Shown: positions 1,939-25,917 of the stretch, piece by piece
Layout: each line of letters starts with the position of its first letter
How positions within the stretch are numbered: the first letter of the stretch is position 1
From: Methanosarcinales archaeon
GTDB lineage: Archaea > Halobacteriota > UBA148 > JAUWXC01
Length of the DNA: 64,000 bases
NCBI GenBank assembly: GCA_026016205.1
Contig: CP061209.1
Coordinates: forward strand, 448,433 to 512,432
Direction of reading: 5' to 3'
Program-made: the position numbers and the translations under genes
Notes under the pieces: model-generated
Told to the model about the DNA's origin: nothing
The model's database searches: none
What the model saw: the letters and a program-made list of their open reading frames with translations, nothing else

Positions 1939-2616
1939 ATGAGCACAATGATTCGCACCGTTGAACTGACAAAAACTTACAGAATGGGCGAGATAGAGGT
2001 ACCGGCGCTCAGAAGTGTTAACCTGGAGGTAAACAAGGGGGATTTTGTAGCCATACAGGGACCTTCTGGCTCTGGGAAGTCGACCTTACTGAACATGATA
2101 GGCTGCCTGGATCACCCGACAAGCGGCACTGTTTTTATCGACGGCACTGACACATCAACGCTCAATGATGACGAACAGGCGAAAATTAGGCGCGAAAAAA
2201 TCGGATTTATTTTCCAGCAGTTCAACTTGATTCATACGCTCTCTGCGTTGGAGAACGTCGCGTTTCCGATGATGTTCACTGGAGTTGCACGTGAAAAAAG
2301 GATTGAACGAGCGAAGGAGTTATTAGAGACTCTGGGCTTGCTCGAAAGGGCGAGGCACAAACCTTCAGAACTTAGTGGAGGCGAACAACAAAGGGTTGCT
2401 ATTGCCCGGGCATTAGCCAATAATCCCCCAGTAATTCTTGGTGATGAGCCAACTGGTAATCTGGATACAAAATCAGGCAAAGTGATGATGGATTTCTTGG
2501 AGAAACTAAACGACAAAGGTGAGACGCTCATCATCGTGACACATGACCCGGAAATTGCTGCGCGAGCGCACAGAATTATCACTATGAGAGACGGTATCCT
2601 GAGGGATAAAAAATGA
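1939..2616 (+). CDS. ABC transporter ATP-binding protein (MacB/LolD-like)
   Basis: Walker A GPSGSGKST, signature LSGGEQQR, Walker B ILGDEPT, H-loop VTHD. Confidence 0.9.
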   Translation: MSTMIRTVELTKTYRMGEIEVPALRSVNLEVNKGDFVAIQGPSGSGKSTLLNMIGCLDHPTSGTVFIDGTDTSTLNDDEQAKIRREKIGFIFQQFNLIHTLSALENVAFPMMFTGVAREKRIERAKELLETLGLLERARHKPSELSGGEQQRVAIARALANNPPVILGDEPTGNLDTKSGKVMMDFLEKLNDKGETLIIVTHDPEIAARAHRIITMRDGILRDKK

Positions 2617-3800
2617 TCGGCATGGATGGCATTATCCTAGCATATAGGAACATAAAGGAGCGCAGAACCCGCTCCCTGTTAACCCTTTTGGGCATAGCCG
2701 TAGGTATAGCAGCGATAATTTCATTGATAGCAGTAGGGCATGGCATGCAGTATGCGATAACAGAGGAACTCGCCAGTCTGGCTGATACCATAATCGTATT
2801 CCCTGGAAGAATGATCCATGGAAGGGGATACGTCGAGTTGGGCGCCTTTACGGAAAGGGATATCAACGATATAGGGCGCATTGGAGGAATCGAAGACATA
2901 GTTGCTTTTACGAGTGGAATCGTTGATGTTGAATATAGGCGTGAACGGACTTCTTTAGAGTTGGTTGGCGGGGACCCGACCGACATGGAAGAACTAATGG
3001 GAGAAATGGTATATCTTGAAGAAGGGCGATGGATACGTGAGCGCGACTACAAGGGATGCGTGATCGGGTACAGCGTTGCGCATGACTATTTCGAGGAAGA
3101 CGTAGGTCTTAACGATCGCATGACAATCAACGAGTCAGAGTTCGTGGTCGTTGGAATCTTTGAGAAACGAGGTGACGACACGGACACTCAAGTATTCGTT
3201 CCCATGAGAACTGCCCAGGATGTCTTAGGAACAGATGATTTGAAGAGCATAATGGTACGAGTCAGGGATATTAATAGGGTTGAAGAAATAGCGGAAGAGA
3301 TTGAAGAAAGAATAAACGAGAACCATAATCTAGATGACTTCGCTCAAACGATGACGATGACTTCGATGATAGAACAGATAGGAATCGTTTTCATGATCGT
3401 ACAGGTCGTGCTGGTCGGCATCGCATCGATCGCACTCATCGTGGGATGCATAGGTATCATGAACACCATGCTGATGTCAGTCATGGAGCGCACGCATGAG
3501 ATAGGAATCATGAAGGCGATCGGCGCCACCAACAGAAACATCATGTTCTTATTTTTGATGGAGGCGGGGATGATTAGCTTGATAGGTGGCATATTAGGGT
3601 GTATATTGGGAACTATCGTTGCCAAGGCGATAGGTACGATAGCCAGCGCGTATATAGGAATGGACATGCCAGCCATCGTAACCCCAACCGTCGCGGTCGG
3701 CAGCATACTCATTGCGGTCTTGGTTGGGGCTATATCAGGTTTGTATCCGGCGAGAAAGGCAGCGAAGATGAGTCCTATCGAAGCAGTTAGATATGAGTAG
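2613..3800 (+). CDS. ABC transporter permease, FtsX/MacB family
   Basis: 4-nt overlap with the ATPase gene. One N-terminal TM, a large periplasmic-type domain and a C-terminal 3-TM FtsX-like module (MKAIGATNRNI motif). Confidence 0.8.
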   Translation: MIGMDGIILAYRNIKERRTRSLLTLLGIAVGIAAIISLIAVGHGMQYAITEELASLADTIIVFPGRMIHGRGYVELGAFTERDINDIGRIGGIEDIVAFTSGIVDVEYRRERTSLELVGGDPTDMEELMGEMVYLEEGRWIRERDYKGCVIGYSVAHDYFEEDVGLNDRMTINESEFVVVGIFEKRGDDTDTQVFVPMRTAQDVLGTDDLKSIMVRVRDINRVEEIAEEIEERINENHNLDDFAQTMTMTSMIEQIGIVFMIVQVVLVGIASIALIVGCIGIMNTMLMSVMERTHEIGIMKAIGATNRNIMFLFLMEAGMISLIGGILGCILGTIVAKAIGTIASAYIGMDMPAIVTPTVAVGSILIAVLVGAISGLYPARKAAKMSPIEAVRYE

Positions 3801-8739: not shown

Positions 8740-8782
8740 AACTAATCTGAGAGTAGGGCGAAAGTATTCTCAGGAGCTCAAG

Positions 8783-9895
8783 ATGTTAGGTGATGTGCTA
8801 TCGTGGGACCAGACCGTCTTCAAAAATGGCGAGATGTTTGAGTTAGACTATGTGCCAGAGCACTTTCGGCACAGGGAATCTCAGATAGAGGAGCTGATGT
8901 TCAGCATCCGCCCTGCTATGAAGGGCATGAGGCCCGTTAACACGCTCTGTTTGGGTCCGCCAGGCACCGGAAAGACCACTGCCATACTCAAAATATTTGA
9001 AGAAATTGAGAAGCACACAGCATCGGTAATTCCTGTTCACATTAATTGCCAGGTCGACAATACGAAGTACGAGATTTTCTCCAGAATATTTCAGAAAATC
9101 TATGGGTTTGCTCCACCATCATCTGGCGTTTCATTTAAAAAGATATTTGAAAAAATTGTCAAGTACCTAATAGAAAAAGAGAAAGTGTTGGTTGTTGCCC
9201 TGGATGATATCAATTACTTGTTTTATGAAAGTGAGGTAAATGACGTGCTATATACACTCCTGCGGGCACATGAAGTGCAGCCCAAGGCAAGAATTGGCGT
9301 CATCGGCGTCTTGAGTGATATAAAGATGCAGTATCAATTGGATCCAAGGGTTGCATCTGTATTTCTGCCGCGCGAAATTCTCTTTTTGCCATACACGCAA
9401 GATGAGATCCACGACATACTATCGAATAGAATCCAATACGGATTTTTTCCTGGCGTGGTTCCAGAGGACATTTTGGACAAAATCGTTGAATATGTCGAAA
9501 GTTCTGGTGATTTGAGGGTGGGCATCGACCTGCTCAAGAAGGCTGGACTTAATGCGGAGCGCAGAGCCAGTAAGTGCATATCGCTGGAAGACGTTAATGA
9601 AGCATACGAAAGCTCAAGATCTGTGCATATACAACGCGCCATCTCATCGCTGGGAGATGAAGAAAAGGTACTGCTCCGGCTAATCGCGGAGGGTGAAGAG
9701 GTCAGGGCGGGGGCACTCTATAAAAAGTTCCAGGAAAAGACAAACCTGAGATACACGCGATTTCATGAAATGCTGAACAAGCTAGATACGACCAAACTCA
9801 TCAATACTCGTTATTCTGGCAAGGGCACCAGGGGCAGGAGCAGGCTTATCTCAGTTAAAAATGCTGACGATATCTTGAAGGGATTGAGAGATTGA
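8783..9895 (+). CDS. cdc6: Orc1/Cdc6 replication initiator
   Basis: Walker A GPPGTGKT, Walker B VVALDDINYL, AAA+ lid, and a C-terminal winged-helix-like region. Confidence 0.9.
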   Translation: MLGDVLSWDQTVFKNGEMFELDYVPEHFRHRESQIEELMFSIRPAMKGMRPVNTLCLGPPGTGKTTAILKIFEEIEKHTASVIPVHINCQVDNTKYEIFSRIFQKIYGFAPPSSGVSFKKIFEKIVKYLIEKEKVLVVALDDINYLFYESEVNDVLYTLLRAHEVQPKARIGVIGVLSDIKMQYQLDPRVASVFLPREILFLPYTQDEIHDILSNRIQYGFFPGVVPEDILDKIVEYVESSGDLRVGIDLLKKAGLNAERRASKCISLEDVNEAYESSRSVHIQRAISSLGDEEKVLLRLIAEGEEVRAGALYKKFQEKTNLRYTRFHEMLNKLDTTKLINTRYSGKGTRGRSRLISVKNADDILKGLRD

Positions 9896-10653
9896 CTGTT
9901 AGGGTGTCTGATCTAGTTCTATATTTGTCCTGTCCGCGCCGAGTATATTTCGTGTCGCGGGGGCATAAGTTGAATGAAGCGACTGCTACTAGGTATATAG
10001 AACATCTATTGCTCAAAGAACTCGCCTACAAATTTCCTTTGTTGATTAAAAATGACAATCTGTGTAAATTGTCCACTCATTTAAGTAGTATCGCAAGTGA
10101 GGCGCAAGGCGAATTAGGTGCGATAGAAAAATCACAGATTATAGGGGCCGTATCAAACATCAATGTCGACGATATCGTAGCCGGTATAGAAAATCTCATT
10201 GATGCACTTGGCAGAGATGTGCTGCTTCAGCGGATCATGCCATGGGAAAAGGAATATCAAATGCATTCTGACCGCTTCGATATGTCAGGCCGCCCCGATA
10301 AATTAGTGTTAATTGATGGTGAGATTATTCCATCTATTATCAAAACTGGTAACAAACCTGAATATGGAGCATGGAAGGATGAACGAATTCAATTGGCCGC
10401 GTACGCACTCCTAATCGAGGAGACATTTAATTGTCCCGTTTCTCGCGGTCTAATCGAATACGCAAGACATGGCGAATTTCGCGATGTCGACATCAAACAA
10501 GCCGATAAAAAGATGGCACTTCGAATCAAGGATAGGACCCAAAAGGTCATAGATGGCACACTCCCAGGTAAACCAAGAAAAGTTCTGTGTGAATCCTGCG
10601 CTTTCATCGACCTGTGTAATGTGAAAAAGTCTTTGCTCTCCAGACTATTTTAA
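9892..10653 (+). CDS. Cas4-like / RecB-family PD-(D/E)xK exonuclease with a 4-Cys cluster (DUF83-like), stand-alone
   Basis: N-terminal Cys in YLSCPRRVYF, a RecB-type GRPDKLV...IIKTG motif, QLAAYALL, and C-terminal CESCAFIDLC (CxxCx5C). The TTG start overlaps the cdc6 stop (TTGA). Confidence 0.6.
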   Translation: MTVRVSDLVLYLSCPRRVYFVSRGHKLNEATATRYIEHLLLKELAYKFPLLIKNDNLCKLSTHLSSIASEAQGELGAIEKSQIIGAVSNINVDDIVAGIENLIDALGRDVLLQRIMPWEKEYQMHSDRFDMSGRPDKLVLIDGEIIPSIIKTGNKPEYGAWKDERIQLAAYALLIEETFNCPVSRGLIEYARHGEFRDVDIKQADKKMALRIKDRTQKVIDGTLPGKPRKVLCESCAFIDLCNVKKSLLSRLF

Positions 10654-16765: not shown

Positions 16766-16999
16766 ATGAAAGTGCTAAACTATAGAATTCTGCTCAGAAA
16801 AGAGCCTGAAGGCGGCTATACAGTGATAGTTCCTTCTCTTCCTGGCTGCGTCACATACGGGGACACAATAGAAGAAGCGATAGAGATGGCAAAGGAAGCT
16901 ATTGGGTTATATGCAGAGAGCTTAAAAAAGCATGGCGAGGAGATGCCAACAGAGGAAGGAACTTTAGAATATACTCTGACGGTAGAGGCACATGCCTAA
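16766..16999 (+). CDS. hicB: HicB-family antitoxin (UPF0150)
   Basis: The YRILLRKEPEGGYTVIVPSLPGCVTYGDTIEEAIEMAKEAI segment is the classic HicB N-domain. Confidence 0.85.
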   Translation: MKVLNYRILLRKEPEGGYTVIVPSLPGCVTYGDTIEEAIEMAKEAIGLYAESLKKHGEEMPTEEGTLEYTLTVEAHA

Positions 17000-17084
17000 A
17001 CTCCCATCCCGTACTCCTCAGAAAGTTATCAAGGTACGTGAGAAAAAAGGATTCGCACGTCATTTCAAACTTTTCTCATTATAA
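16992..17084 (+). pseudogene. hicA: Truncated hicA toxin remnant (N-terminal ~24 codons only)
   Basis: My own translation gives MPKLPSRTPQKVIKVREKKGFARH, then an unrelated FKLFSL* tail. The ATG overlaps the hicB stop. HicA-like similarity ends where the A+T-rich island begins. Confidence 0.6.
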
Positions 17085-17754
17085 ACAAATACTTAAATCC
17101 TCTTAAGTAAAAATTATATTGAATCGCTCTTTGCTCCCAAACATTTGTGTTTGATCTTTGATGTCTTCTAATAAGACAAATTACATCAACGGGTTCAAAA
17201 TATTTTTCCAACATTTGATAGATTCTTATGCCAACAGGAATAAATCCTGATTTACTTCTCCAATGGTCTCCAATAACCCAACCAACAACTTTGCCTTCTT
17301 TCAAAATTCTATGAATCTCTTTAGCTACTTTTTCTAATTCCTGATAAAAATCCTCTTTTTCAGCTGATATTTTGCCGATACAGTCAAGATGACTAGAATA
17401 TGTTACATTATCTCCATATGGTGAATCAACAAAAATCATATCCACTGAGTTATCATCTAAGGGTATTTTTCTTGCGTCGTTTTGTATTATGCTAGGTCTT
17501 GTTGGTGCGATATCATATCCAATAACTTTTCTCCCTTCTTCTTTACATACATCTATTGTTGTTCCACTACCGCACATTGGATCAACAATTAAATCTCCTA
17601 CCTTCGTATATCTTTGTAGCATATTCCAAATAACACCAGCAGGAGTTACACCATTAAACTTCCAGTCACCTTTTTGAGTATTGCCATAACTTTGCTTAGG
17701 AAAGTCCCATAATGTTGTAGGTTCTAAAACTGGTTTATCATTCTGACTTTTCAT
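17065..17754 (-). CDS. Small SAM-dependent N6-adenine/N4-cytosine-type DNA methyltransferase (motif I before motif IV)
   Basis: SAM-binding motif DPMCGSGTT is followed ~45 aa later by the catalytic-type VDSPYG. The protein is 229 aa. Confidence 0.7.
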   Translation of the reverse strand: MKSQNDKPVLEPTTLWDFPKQSYGNTQKGDWKFNGVTPAGVIWNMLQRYTKVGDLIVDPMCGSGTTIDVCKEEGRKVIGYDIAPTRPSIIQNDARKIPLDDNSVDMIFVDSPYGDNVTYSSHLDCIGKISAEKEDFYQELEKVAKEIHRILKEGKVVGWVIGDHWRSKSGFIPVGIRIYQMLEKYFEPVDVICLIRRHQRSNTNVWEQRAIQYNFYLRGFKYLFIMRKV

Positions 17755-18433
17755 TTATTAAAACCCTTAAATCTTCAATAAATTTGTCAAACATCTTTAC
17801 TTTATCGCTTTCTTCTATCTTTGTCTCACTCATGACATAACTGCCATCTGTATCAACTTCTACAATGGCTCTCCCTTTCTTTGTGGGTTTCTTAATGGTC
17901 AATGTCCCATCTTCATCAGGAGTAATAAAGAATACACGAATATGTTTTGTTACATCATCCTGCAATAGCTTTAGTTTCCAGTAACCTGTTTGGGCAATTC
18001 TTTCTCGTAACGTAACTTTGCTTGAAATTACTGCTATAACTTTCATAGTCTTTGGTTCATAAATTATCATATCAACATCAGGCAGATGAGAGCCGAATTC
18101 ACCATAATCTATAAGAAGATTTCTTTTAACTCTGCTTAATTCTTCTGATAAGTTTTTACTTTTTGTTCTTTCTAGTGTATTACCCCCTATTATTTTCAAT
18201 CCCAAACTTTTAACTTCATCTTCAATAATATACATTATCAACTTCTCTAAGTTTTTACCTTTGAAAGCTCTCCAAGATTGTTCATGGTCTTTGTTGGCTG
18301 TTGGATGCTTTAACCAATCTTTTCTGTGTAATTCTTTTGCTTCTTTTAGCATTGCAGAGATGTGCCTATATGCTTCTGTGCCAAATCTCTTTTTCTTTCC
18401 TTCGTAGAGTCTAACTAAATCTGAAAATTGCAT
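17738..18433 (-). CDS. Putative PD-(D/E)xK restriction endonuclease-like protein (family not recognised)
   Basis: HLPDVDMIIYEP...VIAVISSKVTLRER gives a PD...SxK(+E) signature inside a beta-strand-like context. The gene sits between a nuclease and an MTase gene, with SD-like GGTGGA upstream. Confidence 0.45.
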   Translation of the reverse strand: MQFSDLVRLYEGKKKRFGTEAYRHISAMLKEAKELHRKDWLKHPTANKDHEQSWRAFKGKNLEKLIMYIIEDEVKSLGLKIIGGNTLERTKSKNLSEELSRVKRNLLIDYGEFGSHLPDVDMIIYEPKTMKVIAVISSKVTLRERIAQTGYWKLKLLQDDVTKHIRVFFITPDEDGTLTIKKPTKKGRAIVEVDTDGSYVMSETKIEESDKVKMFDKFIEDLRVLINEKSE

Positions 18434-18435
18434 TC

Positions 18436-20331
18436 TTATCCACCTTCATCATTAGATGAATTTTTTATTTTATTAAGCAATTCTTGAAAGTTTTCAATTG
18501 TCTCTTCTGAAAATTCAATATCCCCTCTTTGTGTAATTTCTTCAAAAAACTTTTTAGAAACTATTGTTTTACTTAACTCATCACTTAGAAGATTATATTT
18601 ATCAGTGTCTTTTTTTGAGAATAAAGCTTCAATAGAATCAGAGTTATTCTCACCTACAAAGATTATTTTTCCTTCTGGTATACTATCCTTTATTAATTTA
18701 TTATATGTTTTATTAGTCCCTTTTCTATCAAGAACAATTTTATAATCTTCTAACCCCCATCCAATGAGTAGAGAAACAACTGTACTTGCTTTTGTATGAC
18801 CTACACAAGGTATTATAGCAATATCTTCTGGAAATTTATAATGTTTTTTACTCTTTAGGAAATGTAGCATTGTTTGTAGATAGAAATAATCACTTACCCC
18901 TTCAACAACAATATTCTTTTTTTTGGAAAATGCTATTCCTTGTGAAAGATCTAATCCAATAGCAGTTATTATAGGTGTTAATGTGTCCTCATCAGCACCT
19001 TTAGTAAAATTATTCTGTATTATTGTTTCCTTCGTTTTTTCATCCCTAATCAATAGCTTTATCCTAGCTAATCTATCTGGATCTATAAGGTATGGAGAAT
19101 GTGTTGTGAATATTATCTGATTTTCTTTTGATAATTCTTCAAGTAATTCTAAAACATCCTTTTGTGCTTTTGCATGTAAATAAAGTCCAGGTTCATCTAT
19201 CAGTATTAAATTACCTTTTTCTAGACCTTCAGCTTTTAACCTTAAAAAGAAAGCCATATACCATTGAAGCCCCTTACTTCTCTGTTTAGGTGTGTAAGAT
19301 TCCCCCCTAACTTCTTTCTTGTTTTCATCTAAAACAACATCCTGAACAAAAAATGATAGAAGTGGCTCATCATAACTAACAGAAATTTCAATAGGGTCTT
19401 GTTTCCAATACTTACCAAAAACATCACTACATATTTTCGATGCTTTGTTTACTATATTTTTTCTTTTTTGTCGGTCTTGTGTTTTGCTTAGGGCATCTAT
19501 ATTCAATTTCGACAATTTTATAAAATCTTCAACTATTCCATACTTGGTTTTTAATGTATTTTGATTTGTTATGTCGGATATGGGAACTTCTGACGGTAAA
19601 ATATCATTAAAAGAATTAAACAATACCATTCGAGGTATTAAGGAGATTATTTCTCTATTTATTTTAGCAATTGTAGAATCAATATCTGTCTTAAATTTTA
19701 TATCTACTACTTTGTTTCTAAGTTCATCTAATTTTTCCTTATCATTTTGTTCATTAATAAGGGACAAATTCTTGTTTATAGTATCAATTAAAGAATTTAT
19801 TTTATTGATAATCTCTTCATGAGAATCTCCATCAAATAATTTTATTTCTTCTGAAATCTCTGTTTTATTGTATTTCTTGATGATAGCATATATTTTATTT
19901 ATGGTTTTATTCGTTTTTTCAAATATTTTTTTATTTAATTTTTGCAATTCTCTGTTCAAAATATCAATTAATTCGCCAGAAATGGTATAATCAGATTTTT
20001 TGTTTGATTTTATAATATAGTATTCAAATGTCAAATTATAACTTTCTTTTAATTTTATATCTATTTCTAAATTCTTTAGTATATTCTTTATTTCTTTAGT
20101 ATCAATTTCAAAACAAAATTCAATCTCTATAGGCTCTTTTGTCTTTAAATGAAGTGGCGTATCAGTTTCTTCAAATTTAGTGGCTTTATTCAATTTTTCT
20201 AAACCTTCAAGAACATTAGTTTTTCCTGATTCGTTTTTTCCAGCCAAAACAGTAATATTTGGATTAAGGTAACACTCTCCACTATCTTTTATCGATCTAA
20301 AATTTTTTATCCTAAATGATTTTAGTATCAT
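18436..20331 (-). CDS. OLD-family ATP-dependent nuclease (ABC-type ATPase with helical insertion plus a C-terminal TOPRIM-like domain)
   Basis: Walker A GKNESGKT (aa 31-38), signature-like SKGLQ (aa 352-356), Walker B LILIDEP (aa 375-381), H-loop TTHS (aa 409-412), and a TOPRIM-like strand NIVVEGVSDYFYL (Glu at aa 477). SD-like GAGGT lies in the 12-nt gap upstream. Confidence 0.75.
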   Translation of the reverse strand: MILKSFRIKNFRSIKDSGECYLNPNITVLAGKNESGKTNVLEGLEKLNKATKFEETDTPLHLKTKEPIEIEFCFEIDTKEIKNILKNLEIDIKLKESYNLTFEYYIIKSNKKSDYTISGELIDILNRELQKLNKKIFEKTNKTINKIYAIIKKYNKTEISEEIKLFDGDSHEEIINKINSLIDTINKNLSLINEQNDKEKLDELRNKVVDIKFKTDIDSTIAKINREIISLIPRMVLFNSFNDILPSEVPISDITNQNTLKTKYGIVEDFIKLSKLNIDALSKTQDRQKRKNIVNKASKICSDVFGKYWKQDPIEISVSYDEPLLSFFVQDVVLDENKKEVRGESYTPKQRSKGLQWYMAFFLRLKAEGLEKGNLILIDEPGLYLHAKAQKDVLELLEELSKENQIIFTTHSPYLIDPDRLARIKLLIRDEKTKETIIQNNFTKGADEDTLTPIITAIGLDLSQGIAFSKKKNIVVEGVSDYFYLQTMLHFLKSKKHYKFPEDIAIIPCVGHTKASTVVSLLIGWGLEDYKIVLDRKGTNKTYNKLIKDSIPEGKIIFVGENNSDSIEALFSKKDTDKYNLLSDELSKTIVSKKFFEEITQRGDIEFSEETIENFQELLNKIKNSSNDEGG

Positions 20332-20343
20332 TTTGTTACCTCA

Positions 20344-21774
20344 CTAAATTTTTTCCATCATAATGATATATTCATAGGCATACGCTAATCGGTCTGCTTT
20401 ATGGTTTGATGTAAATCTACCGGTTTTTGAGTCTCTGGTTTGTGGTAGTATTTTTGATGGTATTCTCCTTTTAACTATTTTATGTATTTTGAAACCTAGA
20501 TTTAGCATTGTCTCAACAAAAACTTCTGCATTTAAAATAGGTACTTTTTTCAATTCTGTATTTCCAATAACAATACAGGCTTTGCCTTTTAGTTTTAGAA
20601 CTCTATACATTTCTTCAAAGCATTGTTGCATTTCAAAGAAGTAGTCTCTTACTGCTTCAGATTCCCTTTTTGATTTTTTACTCAATTCTTTTATTTCCTG
20701 TTCCGCCAATTCACTTTTTATACCGTCATGAACTGACTCTTTTTTATGAATAGAACCAATAAATCCTTCCCTAAATTCTGTAACATCTTTAGCATATCCC
20801 AACCACAACGCTGTTAACTGATGTAAATCTGCGTACTCATATGATGTAACATATGGTGGAGAAGTTACAATTAAGCTAACAGAATTATCCTCACATGGCA
20901 AATTTATTGCATCTTGCTTTTCAGCTATAAGAAAATCTTTCAAATTCTTTTTTACATGATCTGGCATAATTTCAAACAATTCTTTATTTCCTTTTAACAT
21001 CCGTTTTATATGCCTCTTGAATGTAGATAATGGATCAATTGGTTGTTTCTTTAAATCTCTTGTTGGTTTTACACTTTTCATTAACCAAATTGAAGAATTT
21101 TTGAGTATCTGTGAAAATGCACAGAGACAAAAGTTTTTAATATCGTCATCTCTAATTTGATTTATCCTTCCCAAAATAATTCCTAACTCATATCTAATAT
21201 TTTCATGCGGAAACCAATAGTTAATTCGTTTGTTATCTGGAATTACGGGTTCTATTTCTATATTTGATGATGTTTTTTGTTCGTTCTTTTTCGTTTCAAT
21301 AAATAAAGTTAGATCGCCTAATAGTTGTTTTACTTCATTTTCTAATTTTGTTGGTTCTATCGGTGTAGTCTTCACTTTTGTTATTAACCATGCAACAGGA
21401 TTTATGTCAACCCCAACTGCTTTTCTTCCTGAAACTAGAGATTCTACCAAAGTAGTCCCACAGCCCATAAACGGATCACAAACAATTTCATCTATGGTAG
21501 TATATTTTTCTATACATCTCCTTGCTAACTGAGGAATAAATTTAGCAGGATACCTATGGTAGCCGTGTGTTGCATAAGAAGTGTCTTTTCTTGACAAATC
21601 CTCAAATGCCCAAACAGTATCTTCAGCTAAATTATTAAATATTTGTAAAATTTCAACTTGTAGATTTGTTTTAATAGGTTCTATCATACTCCTTTTCTTC
21701 ATATTTACTAACGGTGAATTGTTTTTCTTTACTAGTTCCTCAAACAATAATGGCATATTAACTTCTTCCCCCAC
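20344..21774 (-). CDS. DNA methyltransferase, alpha-type order (motif I - long variable region - motif IV TSPPY)
   Basis: GYHRYPAKFIPQL, DPFMGCGTT, then a ~200-aa insert, then VTSPPYVTSYEY. The ORF-track start is GTG at 21774; an alternative ATG lies at 21756. Confidence 0.8.
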   Translation of the reverse strand: MGEEVNMPLLFEELVKKNNSPLVNMKKRSMIEPIKTNLQVEILQIFNNLAEDTVWAFEDLSRKDTSYATHGYHRYPAKFIPQLARRCIEKYTTIDEIVCDPFMGCGTTLVESLVSGRKAVGVDINPVAWLITKVKTTPIEPTKLENEVKQLLGDLTLFIETKKNEQKTSSNIEIEPVIPDNKRINYWFPHENIRYELGIILGRINQIRDDDIKNFCLCAFSQILKNSSIWLMKSVKPTRDLKKQPIDPLSTFKRHIKRMLKGNKELFEIMPDHVKKNLKDFLIAEKQDAINLPCEDNSVSLIVTSPPYVTSYEYADLHQLTALWLGYAKDVTEFREGFIGSIHKKESVHDGIKSELAEQEIKELSKKSKRESEAVRDYFFEMQQCFEEMYRVLKLKGKACIVIGNTELKKVPILNAEVFVETMLNLGFKIHKIVKRRIPSKILPQTRDSKTGRFTSNHKADRLAYAYEYIIMMEKI

Positions 21775-21803
21775 CTTTATTATTCTTCTTTATACCCTCT
21801 AAT

Positions 21804-23096
21804 CTATATCTTTAACCCAAACTCTCCCAACCGCTCTCTCGCGCCCTCTCGCGCATCCTGGTGCTCCTTCAGGAATTTGGCCATTAACTCTGCGGCGAGT
21901 ACTTTGCACTTTCCGCAGGTGCGCTTGCCTCCCTTGCATTCGCTGTATATTTCTGTGACTTGCTTATCGTCTTCGAGCAGGTGGAACAGTAGTAACTCGT
22001 AGACCGTGCAGTTCTGGGGCTCTCCGCCGGAGCGGCGCTGCTCTGTCATGGTGACTTTGCCCCCTGTCTTCGCCTTCTTCACCTTCGCAGCCGCGGTTTC
22101 AGGCGATTCCGTGAGCGCGACAATGCTGTCCGGAATCGTGCTGGACATCTTGCCACCACTCAATCCGCTCATGAAGCGATGATATGTTGATGCAGGAGGG
22201 TAAAAGCCATAGCCACCATGCTCGATTTCGACCTCACGCACAATCGATGCGATTTTATCAATGTCTCCATTTTCATAAACGTCCACATGTTCAGCATATG
22301 CCTTGACCTTGCCATCCACTCTCCCGGCAATCTCGTGCATGGCTGCCTTGTTCGCGGTCTTGGCTCTTATGCTGATGTGCCCCTTGCGCGCTTCCACCTT
22401 GAACATCCTCATCCTGTTCGCAATGTCCCTTGTAATGCGGATGTGCGGGTCCTGGTCTGCCCCAACGGGAATCACAACGGGCTTGGGTCCGCCAAACTCT
22501 GTCAGTTGAGGGTGCAGAATGTCCGCGCTCTGAACCAGCGTGCTCAATATATGTGATATATGGGTTTCACCAGAAAAACCATAGATGGCACTTAATTCGG
22601 ACAGATTTGCTTCGACTCCGAGCTCAAATGCCAGGTCTTTTACAACAGGGCACTTCGATTGAAAATAGATGCGACCATCTGGCTGGAAGCCGAGCGCAAT
22701 CAAGCTGAGTATGTAATCTTTGCCAATCTCGGCGCAGTCCTTCCAGGATATCTTCCGCACTGAGTGCGCCTCCATGTCTGCAACGGCAAAGAACGTCTGC
22801 GCACCCATCTGCTGGTGCCATATGATTTCGTCCATCACCATTTTATGGCCGAGGTGGACGCGGCCAGATGGCATGAACCCGCTCATGACAGCAAATGGCA
22901 TCTTGTTCTTCATCGCATTCAATATCTGGTGATAATCCCTGTGGCCAAAGATGATGTGTCGCCTCATGTACTTGTGTGGGTTAGGCACATCAGGCAGAAT
23001 ATCCTCAAAGGGCGAGATACCAAATTCATCAAATAATTTCGAATAATCTTTAATGTTCACTGTGCCCCATGGGTCAAGTTTCGTCTTGCGCTTCAT
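21804..23096 (-). CDS. trpS: Tryptophanyl-tRNA synthetase (archaeal type)
   Basis: Class I HIGH-like GRVHLGH and KMSKS-like GKMSST. TyrRS is encoded separately in this window. The C-terminal region contains a Cys4 cluster. Confidence 0.85.
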
Positions 23097-25315: not shown

Positions 25316-25917
25316 CCCTCTACAAAAATAAGGAAAAATTCGAGAGAATTTCCATCAAGGTGGGAATAATATTCAGCAGGCTAGGGTTATCTCCCAACCA
25401 GTGGACTCTTTCCAGTTTAATACCGGCTCTCATCGCTTTTTATCTTCTAACGTCCAGCCGATTTATTCCTGCCGGGATTTTCTTTTTCATCTCCGCGTTC
25501 ATTGACCTCGTTGATGGCTCGGTCGCAAGGGTTACCGGGCGCGTGACAAAACTTGGCGCCTATTTAGATACTATAATAGACCGGTATGTGGAATTTCTGA
25601 TAATCTTTGCCCTGCTGTTCTGCCCCCTTCCCGATTTCACAATTCCAATCTACTGCTGGATCCTCGTCTTCTTATTCGGCTCAATGATGACGTCGTATGC
25701 AAAGGCGGCGGCATGTGATAAACTCGGAAAAGATGTAAGAGGGGGCATCGTGGAGAGGGCAGAGAGAATTGCGCTACTATGCATTGGCATTTTGCTGGCT
25801 CACTTCGACAGAGTTTACTTGACCTATATAATAGTAATTTTGGCTGTCCTAACTAACATCAGCGCTCTACAAAGGCTTGCTGCTGCAATCAGGAAGAACG
25901 GATCTGCTGGGATTTGA
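25312..25917 (+). CDS. CDP-alcohol phosphatidyltransferase (likely archaetidylinositol-phosphate synthase)
   Basis: DLVDGSVARVTGRVTKLGAYLDTIIDR matches DGx2ARx8Gx3Dx3D. It has a 4-nt overlap with the MIPS gene. Confidence 0.75.
   Translation: MTLYKNKEKFERISIKVGIIFSRLGLSPNQWTLSSLIPALIAFYLLTSSRFIPAGIFFFISAFIDLVDGSVARVTGRVTKLGAYLDTIIDRYVEFLIIFALLFCPLPDFTIPIYCWILVFLFGSMMTSYAKAAACDKLGKDVRGGIVERAERIALLCIGILLAHFDRVYLTYIIVILAVLTNISALQRLAAAIRKNGSAGI

Follow-up and report, generated by a model that had tools for sequence, protein, structure and literature searches.

The stretch of DNA analysed here, a window of 64,000 nucleotides (64 kb) from a Methanosarcinales archaeon, carries on its minus strand an island of 4750 bp (positions 17055 to 21804) with four genes: two DNA methyltransferase genes (M1 and M2), a restriction endonuclease gene (R) and, placed between M1 and R, a gene for an OLD-family protein in which an ABC ATPase is joined to a TOPRIM domain. 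All positions are those of the whole window, and L-numbers (L001 to L098) designate the comparison loci that were fetched. The best explanation of this arrangement, to which we give a probability of about 0.78, is that an acquired Type II restriction-modification (R-M) cassette, made up of M1, the BsaWI-family endonuclease R and M2, captured a Class 1-like OLD gene of the stand-alone type at the start codon of R. As judged from their relatives, separate evolutionary histories can be demonstrated for the cassette and for the OLD gene, and the order M1-OLD-R-M2 is, within the data that could be searched, a singleton and not a conserved system.

The comparison of the island by blastn with all the fetched loci separated its DNA into two parts. 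Relatives of the R-M genes covered positions 21762 to 20328 and 18453 to 17064 and skipped the OLD gene, while OLD relatives aligned solely to positions 20334 to 18448, the closest of them with 80% nucleotide identity. By these alignments, two unrelated lineages, the R-M cassette and OLD, make up the island DNA as an exact mosaic. The inserted portion extends from 18434 to 20331 (minus strand) and comprises the OLD open reading frame (ORF; 18436 to 20331, 631 amino acids) plus 2 nt. Immediately upstream of it, at 20332 to 20343, stands the ancestral M1-R spacer (TGAGGTAACAAA), which contains the Shine-Dalgarno (SD) motif GAGGT and now serves OLD. This spacer matches the one that precedes the R start in L001, L003 and L006 (TGAGGTAATCAAA-ATG), with a score of 44 against L001. 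The junction of the closest cassette devoid of OLD, that of L001, reads ...ATGATGGAAAAAATA-TGA-GGTAATCAAA-ATGCAATTTTCAGATTT. The window has this M1 end and this spacer (TAG-TGAGGTAACAAA) ahead of the OLD ATG, and the R start (ATGCAATTTTCAGATTT) is found 2 nt past the OLD stop. Since the M1 end and the spacer abut the OLD ATG and the R start trails the OLD stop, the OLD ORF was placed precisely at the R start codon. To judge from this alignment, OLD took over the ribosome-binding spacer of R, and the last OLD codons (GAAGGTGGATAA, with GGTGGA) supply the putative new SD of R. The R-M homology given by blastn extends to 18453, that is, about 20 nt into the 3' end of OLD; the 3' ends of unrelated OLD genes align similarly, and just the left copy is clearly ancestral spacer. 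On these alignments, the insertion point is located within about 20 nt and exactly on its upstream side. A duplication of the spacer or target site flanking OLD was also considered and rejected, the junction 30-mers scoring 14 versus 15.2 ± 3.2 for shuffled sequences (P = 0.68).

On the R-M side, one genome per species was scanned, which gave 80 loci with an endonuclease of 64-85% amino acid identity to R. Their hosts include Aenigmatarchaeota, Woesearchaeota, Bathyarchaeia, Heimdallarchaeia and Methanosarcinales among the archaea, as well as Patescibacteria, Omnitrophota, Chloroflexota, Gammaproteobacteria and others. The architectures found were M1-R-M2 (36 loci), R-M2 (16), M2-R (14), M1-R (11) and R-M1 (1), and R stood alone in 2 of the 80 loci, both at contig ends. 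None of the 47 M1-R junctions held an OLD gene: 46 of them measured from −1 to 62 nt, and the remaining one (L050) holds a GHKL ATPase. Likewise, no OLD gene was found within ±10 kb of the endonuclease in any of the 80 loci by tblastn and an OLD-clade hidden Markov model (HMM) over 0.99 Mb, in which the sole HMM match was a TOPRIM-less ABC ATPase in L030. The plasmid search with the endonuclease gave no match. An identity of 64-85% across archaeal and bacterial phyla is far above the expectation for housekeeping genes. This conservation, together with the occurrence of R beside M1 alone, beside M2 alone (in either order) or beside both, suggests very active horizontal transfer. The variety of partners also suggests that the methyltransferases are redundant or complementary, and either of them is probably sufficient, because M1 or M2 alone accompanies R in other genomes.

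On the OLD side, 1394 homologues were found in the protein database, and a search of 5.8 billion proteins gave just two close relatives, the identical one and another with 74% identity, which lies outside R-M genes. The latter (L081) is surrounded by small unknown ORFs on a 2.7-kb contig, so that its context is uninformative. Behind each of the homologues with 62 and 59% identity comes, after 12-28 nt, a gene for a 283-amino-acid protein with a receiver domain and a TIR part, the latter matching the PADLOC model PDC-S35 (L082:289-3072 and L083:1168-3946; also L084 and L085), and the homologue with 57% identity (L091:5164-7554) lies beside a divergent TIR_2 gene. OLD and TIR genes may therefore constitute a two-gene module, of which we found no description. 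The homologues with 55%, 45-46%, 36% (on a viral contig) and 28-37% identity (Bacillus, Enterobacter plasmids) were in unrelated contexts. In about 13 neighbourhoods, neither a PF01555 methyltransferase nor a BsaWI-type endonuclease adjoined an OLD homologue, and the additional relatives obtained from a metagenome scan (3 loci) and a viral-contig scan (1 locus) had no R-M genes with them. Separately, two MvaI/BcnI-family restriction endonuclease genes (L094:1-847) were observed about 5 kb upstream of the 45% homologue, which is a defence-island-like clustering and not an operon.

An earlier note on this DNA, made from the letters alone, had proposed a candidate composite or undescribed defence system, possibly with an OLD nuclease gated by methylation. 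This proposal is not supported: it fails on a condition that the note itself had named as refuting, since the OLD and R-M genes assort independently (0 of 80 loci on one side, about 13 contexts on the other). In its strictest form, that of an obligate four-gene system whose OLD protein requires both the PD-(D/E)XK protein and the marks set by M1/M2, we consider it extremely unlikely. The packing of the operon and weak similarities of the ATPase to MAD3 and of M2 to mad2 speak in its favor, but the three R-M genes are widespread without OLD, with no OLD gene within ±10 kb in the 80 loci, the OLD clade is widespread without R-M genes, the island is an exact mosaic at the DNA level, its gene order is a singleton and the scores against the MADS proteins are far under their cutoffs. 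In contrast, the weaker alternative offered by the same note is a good description of the locus: an R-M layer and an abortive-type module that are inherited together.

The organization of the island was as first described. The four co-oriented ORFs of the minus strand run from 21774 to 20344 (M1), from 20331 to 18436 (OLD), from 18433 to 17738 (R) and from 17754 to 17065 (M2), with gaps of 12 nt between M1 and OLD and of 2 nt between OLD and R and an overlap of 17 nt between R and M2. SD-like sequences precede the starts of OLD (GAGGT) and R (GGTGGA). These coordinates, spacings and SD-like sequences, as well as the motifs quoted in the earlier note, were all present, and the domains guessed from them were recognized by Pfam, PADLOC and NCBIfam. 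For M1, the likelier start is not 21774 but the ATG at 21756, with GGTGGGGG standing 5' of it, and gene callers predict 470 amino acids. Besides the four genes, the island contains a leader of 48 nt and a trailer of 10 nt. In the leader (21757 to 21803, minus strand) there are a TATA-like element (TATAAA, 21794-21789) and the SD-like GGTGGGGG (21775-21768), both 5' of the M1 ATG. Nucleotide comparison found zero homology between the leader and the sister genome L097; the leader arrived together with the cassette, and its TATAAA is a candidate archaeal promoter. All four ORFs are full length with respect to their orthologues, and a second assembly has the same four-gene arrangement with an identical OLD protein.

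The foreign composition of the island, already pointed out in that note, was borne out. Its overall guanine plus cytosine (G+C) content is 0.302 (0.30 in round terms) versus 0.471 for the remaining window, and at third codon positions (GC3) the four genes range from 0.18 to 0.27 versus 0.51-0.62 for pheS, trpS and endA. OLD is the most A+T-rich of them (G+C 0.269, GC3 0.176, versus a GC3 of 0.21-0.27 for M1, R and M2). No integrase or transposase genes were found in or by the island, nor any meaningful border repeats flanking it; no tRNA gene adjoins it, the nearest being at 25898.

The surroundings of the island indicate where it landed. By its TrpS homologues, the host stands near uncultured archaea of the Methanocellales/Methanosarcinales type. 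In the sister genome L097, whose TrpS is 94% identical, the whole region is syntenic, the gene order is trpS-hicA-hicB and there is no island. Nucleotide identity to L097 (96 and 94% on the two sides) breaks off at 21805 and is found again from 17054, the island having replaced 195 bp (L097:9293-9487) that include the 3' two-thirds of hicA. What is left of this gene on the plus strand (16992 to 17054) are its first 21 codons or so (MPKLPSRTPQKVIKVREKKGF...), cut by the island, while the HicA of L097 is intact (74 amino acids, PF07927). The adjacent hicB antitoxin gene (16766 to 16999, plus strand; PF15919, E = 6e-14; G+C 0.44) is intact but orphaned and belongs to the native flank. In L098 (TrpS 86% identical) the corresponding slot (2131-3742) is occupied by a DUF6884/YaaA-like gene and a 316-amino-acid unknown gene, and hicA is cut at about codon 40. 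This is an independent event, and the trpS-hicAB slot is therefore a local hotspot.

The three R-M proteins of the island can be assigned as follows. R (17738 to 18433, minus strand; 231 amino acids) is a PD-(D/E)XK Type II restriction endonuclease of the BsaWI/CCGG family, matching PF18643 (RE_BsaWI) over the full 105-position model with E = 2.4e-36 and 124 bits versus a cutoff of 26.2; the suggestion that the 231-amino-acid protein is a nuclease was thus correct. R has a catalytic arrangement of the PD...(S)xK type as well as an R-(D/E)-R motif, and residues P118-D119, S137-x-K139 and R143-E144-R145 are invariant among 20 orthologues. A single-sequence search of the PDB with R gave zero matches, and the profile of the 20 orthologues aligned to BsaWI (4ZSF) over K165 and R169-D170-R171 with E = 0.017 only, so that the family assignment rests on Pfam and the motifs. 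BsaWI and its relatives have a PD...K...E active site and an R-(D/E)-R motif that reads CCGG (PMC4652773). Because the invariant motifs match the PD and K of this active site and this CCGG-reading motif, R very probably cuts a CCGG-containing site. An M1 or M2 orthologue flanks R in 78 of the 80 related loci.

M1 (20344 to 21756, minus strand; 470 amino acids) is a DNA amino-methyltransferase whose motif I (DPFMGCGTT) and motif IV (TSPPY) are separated by about 200 amino acids. It matches PF01555 (N6_N4_Mtase, E = 5e-26) and the PADLOC model MTase_II (E = 3e-61), its closest PDB entries are 2ZIE and N4-cytosine methyltransferases, and its orthologues, with 45-84% identity, are located immediately 5' of R in 47 loci. 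M2 (17065 to 17754, minus strand; 229 amino acids), which overlaps R by 17 nt, is a second DNA amino-methyltransferase (motif I DPMCGSGTT, motif IV DSPY; PF01555, E = 2e-22). Its DSPY lines up with the SPPY motif IV of 2ZIE, and its orthologues adjoin R in 66 of the 80 loci. Both M1 and M2 match many PADLOC models of Type II methyltransferases.

No depletion of CCGG-type sites was seen in the host window (137 observed versus 118 expected), a value which fits a recent arrival and is uninformative on the specificity of R. In the host DNA outside positions 17001-21803, other sites were found less often than expected: GATC (99 observed versus about 300) and GGCC (102 versus about 230) strongly so, and CTAG (60 versus 91) to a lesser degree. 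These counts, with CCGG undepleted beside them, point to a long-standing pressure from other R-M specificities and to a CCGG-type system that arrived recently.

With respect to the OLD protein, it matches the Pfam families AAA_15 (E = 4e-27) and AAA_21 (E = 1e-15) and the PADLOC models AriA (E = 6e-28) and Old (E = 9e-27), while its match to the Pfam family OLD-like_TOPRIM (E = 6e-4, 20.7 bits) is under the curated cutoff of 23.2. The ATPase has a Walker A motif (G31-K-N-E-S-G-K37-T), signature residues R351, S352 and Q356, a Walker B motif (D379-E380) and an H-loop (H411), all of them invariant across the clade of 31 homologues, and a helical insertion at about residues 120-230. Candidate TOPRIM ligands are E477, D481, D535 and S566-x-E568, and the clade-invariant residues of this domain are E477, D481, D535, E568, D575 and K588. 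The best solved relative is TsOLD (6P74), with E = 3e-11 for the single sequence and 4.5e-20 for a 31-sequence profile. The AlphaFold2 (AF2) model, with a mean pLDDT of 85, also gave 6P74 as the top Foldseek match (E = 1.7e-14), GajA being the second; in the TOPRIM domain of this model, beta3 (530-535), alpha3 (540-548) and beta4 (556-559) are consecutive and no helix is inserted. Model and Foldseek match thus support the TOPRIM fold. Absence of a TOPRIM helical insert marks Class 1 OLD proteins versus the other classes (PMC7049728; PMC12796447), and Class 1 genes are described as single and in variable neighborhoods (PMC10568477; PMC12796447), away from other defence genes (PMC10568477). The window OLD agrees on both counts, the model having no such insert and its relatives having variable neighborhoods without a constant partner in about 13 contexts.

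In TsOLD, metal A is bound by E377, D431 and D433 and metal B by D381, S478 and E480 (PMC7049728). Counterparts of all these ligands exist in the window protein except for the second metal-A aspartate (D433), which has been replaced by lysine in its subclade (LDxKGT; residues 534-537 of the window OLD are LDRK, positions 18719-18730). TsOLD, P2 Old and the more distant members of the OLD clade retain the DxD metal-A pair (LDND in the distant members), and in P2 Old the mutation D455A, at the position of the lysine swap, abolishes activity in vivo (PMC7049728). This substitution favors an alternative in which OLD is a passenger without a defence role, either an impaired selfish hitchhiker (DxK TOPRIM) or a housekeeping-type protein like the archaeal Cran1. 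Among archaeal OLD proteins there is indeed a class whose function is not defence (PMC12796447), and TOPRIM is reported to be dispensable for the phenotype of E. coli YbjD (PMC13261556). Nevertheless, the OLD ORF is intact and has kept all the clade-invariant residues, including E477, D481, D535, E568 and K588; its clade is patchy, variable and often in defence-like contexts (TIR partners, plasmids); and it has neither of the Class 5 hallmarks (TOPRIM helical insert, conserved membrane-protein partner) and lies in foreign DNA, not in the core genome. We therefore regard a mere passenger as very unlikely.

OLD is not the only gene that has entered a cassette of this type. A GHKL (HATPase_c_3) ATPase of 552 amino acids lies between M1 and R in L050:8346-10004. 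The R-M2 junction holds another GHKL ATPase (511 amino acids) together with two small ORFs in L026:3476-5720 and a Z1/Helicase_II gene set in L070:10730-13003, and in L018:10681-11354 a decayed Z1 N-terminal fragment is fused to a truncated M2. In the patescibacterial L030:2124-3362, an AAA_15/AAA_21 ABC ATPase of 412 amino acids without TOPRIM starts 4 nt after R and replaces M2. With the window included, at least 6 of 81 cassettes have a nested or appended NTPase-type gene. The GHKL and Z1 genes show that the junctions tolerate cargo, and they do not imply a specific role of OLD. Apart from these, ORFs of 75-92 amino acids were observed in the 230-300-nt R-M2 gap of nine loci; they belong to at least two unrelated families without a Pfam match (family A in L013, L021, L026, L050 and L065; family B in L032, L039, L052 and L064) and could be controller-type or other accessory proteins.

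Another alternative is a facultative coupling, in which OLD would step in as guard or back-up once R is inhibited or overwhelmed, or would degrade, as a 5'-3' exonuclease, the linear fragments made by R. In bacteria, RecBCD destroys restriction-made linear fragments; to our knowledge, archaea lack RecBCD. Several points favor the coupling. OLD and the R-M genes are co-oriented, translation-coupled and in one operon, NTPase genes are found repeatedly at cassette junctions (ABC in L030, GHKL in L050 and L026, Z1 in L070 and L018), and Class 1 OLD proteins degrade linear double-stranded DNA in the 5'-3' direction in vitro (PMC10568477). Effectors within modification-based operons have precedents (PMC12707154; PMC12839542), and analogues of a guard are PrrC for EcoprrI, PARIS for Ocr and the OLD-ABC proposed in BREX. 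On the other hand, the co-occurrence of OLD and R-M is confined to the window lineage, the closest OLD homologues have TIR partners or none, the cited anti-restriction proteins, Stp and Ocr, target Type I and BREX systems and not simple Type II ones (PMC12707154; PMC12839542), and the sequence indicates no interface between R and OLD. On balance, coupling seems to us doubtful. A broader proposal, that BsaWI-type two-methylase cassettes are landing platforms which recruit NTPase or nuclease genes as a second layer, with OLD perhaps wired to restriction as guard or exonuclease, is put forward only tentatively and at low odds; if true, the back-up effector logic of PrrC, PARIS and BREX would extend to plain Type II R-M and to archaea.

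Some of our observations weigh against the capture of an independent OLD gene. The survey from the OLD side covers only about 13 contexts, many of them on short contigs. The gene spacing is tight and translation-coupled (12 nt, 2 nt), and the superfamily of OLD-type ATPases has joined the cassette at least twice among 81 cassettes (the window and L030). Independent assortment implies that there is no mutual need, yet it is compatible with a facultative interaction in the operon of the window. Finally, the nuclease chemistry of the OLD subclade may differ, because lysine replaces the aspartate whose mutation in P2 Old inactivates the protein.

The course of events was thus that OLD entered the cassette and that the whole 4.75-kb unit then replaced the 3' part of hicA downstream of trpS. 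For the working of the unit, the following can be proposed. A single transcript would start from the TATA-like element 5' of M1 or would result from read-through from trpS. M1, M2 or both would methylate CCGG-containing host sites (W-CCGG-W-like), and R would cut unmethylated incoming DNA. OLD would constitute an independent second layer, an ATP-controlled TOPRIM nickase or exonuclease answering infection cues that R-M misses, and its action would probably be abortive-infection-like, as with P2 Old and the Vc OLD of Vibrio cholerae. Both layers would be co-transcribed and co-inherited, neither of them requiring the other, although OLD may gain from the post-segregational stability conferred by R-M.

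The locus is an unusually clean record of defence-gene stacking, in which both parents, the insertion point, the re-use of the spacer and the empty site can be identified. It shows that, in an archaeon, a selfish Type II R-M operon can carry a Class 1-type OLD gene of the stand-alone kind. In this regard, a defensive action has so far been demonstrated for none of the archaeal OLD proteins, the sole characterized one, Cran1, having a non-defence role (PMC12796447). It also serves as a caution, since tight operon packing alone is poor evidence for a new composite system. If facultative coupling were true, the guard or back-up logic would extend to Type II R-M; as matters stand, the locus is a well-documented example of known principles. 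Elsewhere in the window, a Cas4-like PD-(D/E)XK gene (about 9950-10650) was observed adjoining an Orc1/Cdc6 gene (about 8780-9900), both recognized by Pfam matches on the identical contig L090:19679-21549.

When compared with known systems, the R-M part of the island resembles the BsaWI/CCGG family of Type II systems (BsaWI, NgoMIV, Cfr10I/Bse634I, SgrAI, AgeI) in having R-E-R where BsaWI has R169-D170-R171, and ordinary Type IIP systems in that R is flanked by cognate amino-methyltransferases. Unlike BsaWI, from which it is distant, R has 231 amino acids versus 272, its cassette often has two methyltransferases, and in the window a fourth, non-R-M gene splits the operon. The OLD protein is most similar to those of Class 1 (P2 Old, TsOLD, Vc OLD): one polypeptide combines the ABC ATPase, a helical insertion and, at the C-terminus, a TOPRIM without the Class 2 insert; no partner gene is conserved in its clade; and its best match in both sequence and fold is TsOLD, the counterparts of E377, D381, D431 and S478-x-E480 being conserved. 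Class 1 OLD proteins defend alone (PMC12392090; PMC10568477), Vc OLD via abortive infection (PMC12392090). The window protein departs from TsOLD in the lysine at the counterpart of D433 and in being about 100 amino acids longer, and from Class 1 in general in that its gene is nested in an R-M operon and some of its close relatives pair with a receiver-TIR protein.

Other systems with OLD-type proteins share less with the island. PARIS (AriA/AriB) uses an ABC ATPase of the same superfamily and the PADLOC AriA models match the ATPase part, though only in the generic AAA_15/AAA_21 manner; there is no AriB gene (DUF4435/TOPRIM) in the island, ATPase and TOPRIM are fused, and the best match is TsOLD and not AriA. 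The PADLOC model of GajA also matches the ATPase part; in contrast to Gabija (GajA/GajB, OLD Class 2), the island has no UvrD-like GajB helicase, a BsaWI-type endonuclease is downstream and OLD lacks the TOPRIM insert of Class 2. It differs from retron OLD systems (Class 3) in having no reverse transcriptase ORF in or beside it, the retron non-coding RNA not having been searched for. Cran1, of the archaeal Class 5, is vertically inherited in Sulfolobales, forms an operon with a membrane protein gene and has a TOPRIM helical insert and a non-defence role (PMC12796447), whereas the window OLD has no such insert, has R-M neighbors and lies in foreign, low-G+C DNA that is missing from the sister genome. 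As for MADS, OLD scored 24.3 bits against MAD3 (cutoff 420; E = 1.5e-5), the similarity of M2 to mad2 is that of methyltransferases in general, and the island has no other mad genes.

The closest parallels to the arrangement itself are effectors embedded in methylation-based systems. The GHKL/MORC- and Z1-type accessory genes of R-M loci occupy the same junction position as OLD, although they belong to different protein families. PrrC sits inside the Type IC EcoprrI locus (PMC12707154), and OLD-ABC/TOPRIM modules, interpreted as back-up effectors, are known from at least 1242 taxa, where they lie within operons of BREX and its relatives (PMC12839542). The earlier note had not recognized the embedding of an OLD gene among methyltransferase and restriction genes as a described arrangement; these reports mean that, as a principle, it is not new. 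As in the window, a nuclease or NTPase effector is placed there between the genes of a methylation-based system and is transcribed and inherited with them as a second layer (PMC12707154; PMC12839542). Theirs are Type I or BREX systems, in which the association recurs across many taxa and has a proposed sensing logic, whereas the window presents a singleton in a small archaeal Type II cassette. What is unusual in it is that the host system is a small Type II cassette, that the host organism is an archaeon and that the event can be reconstructed so precisely.

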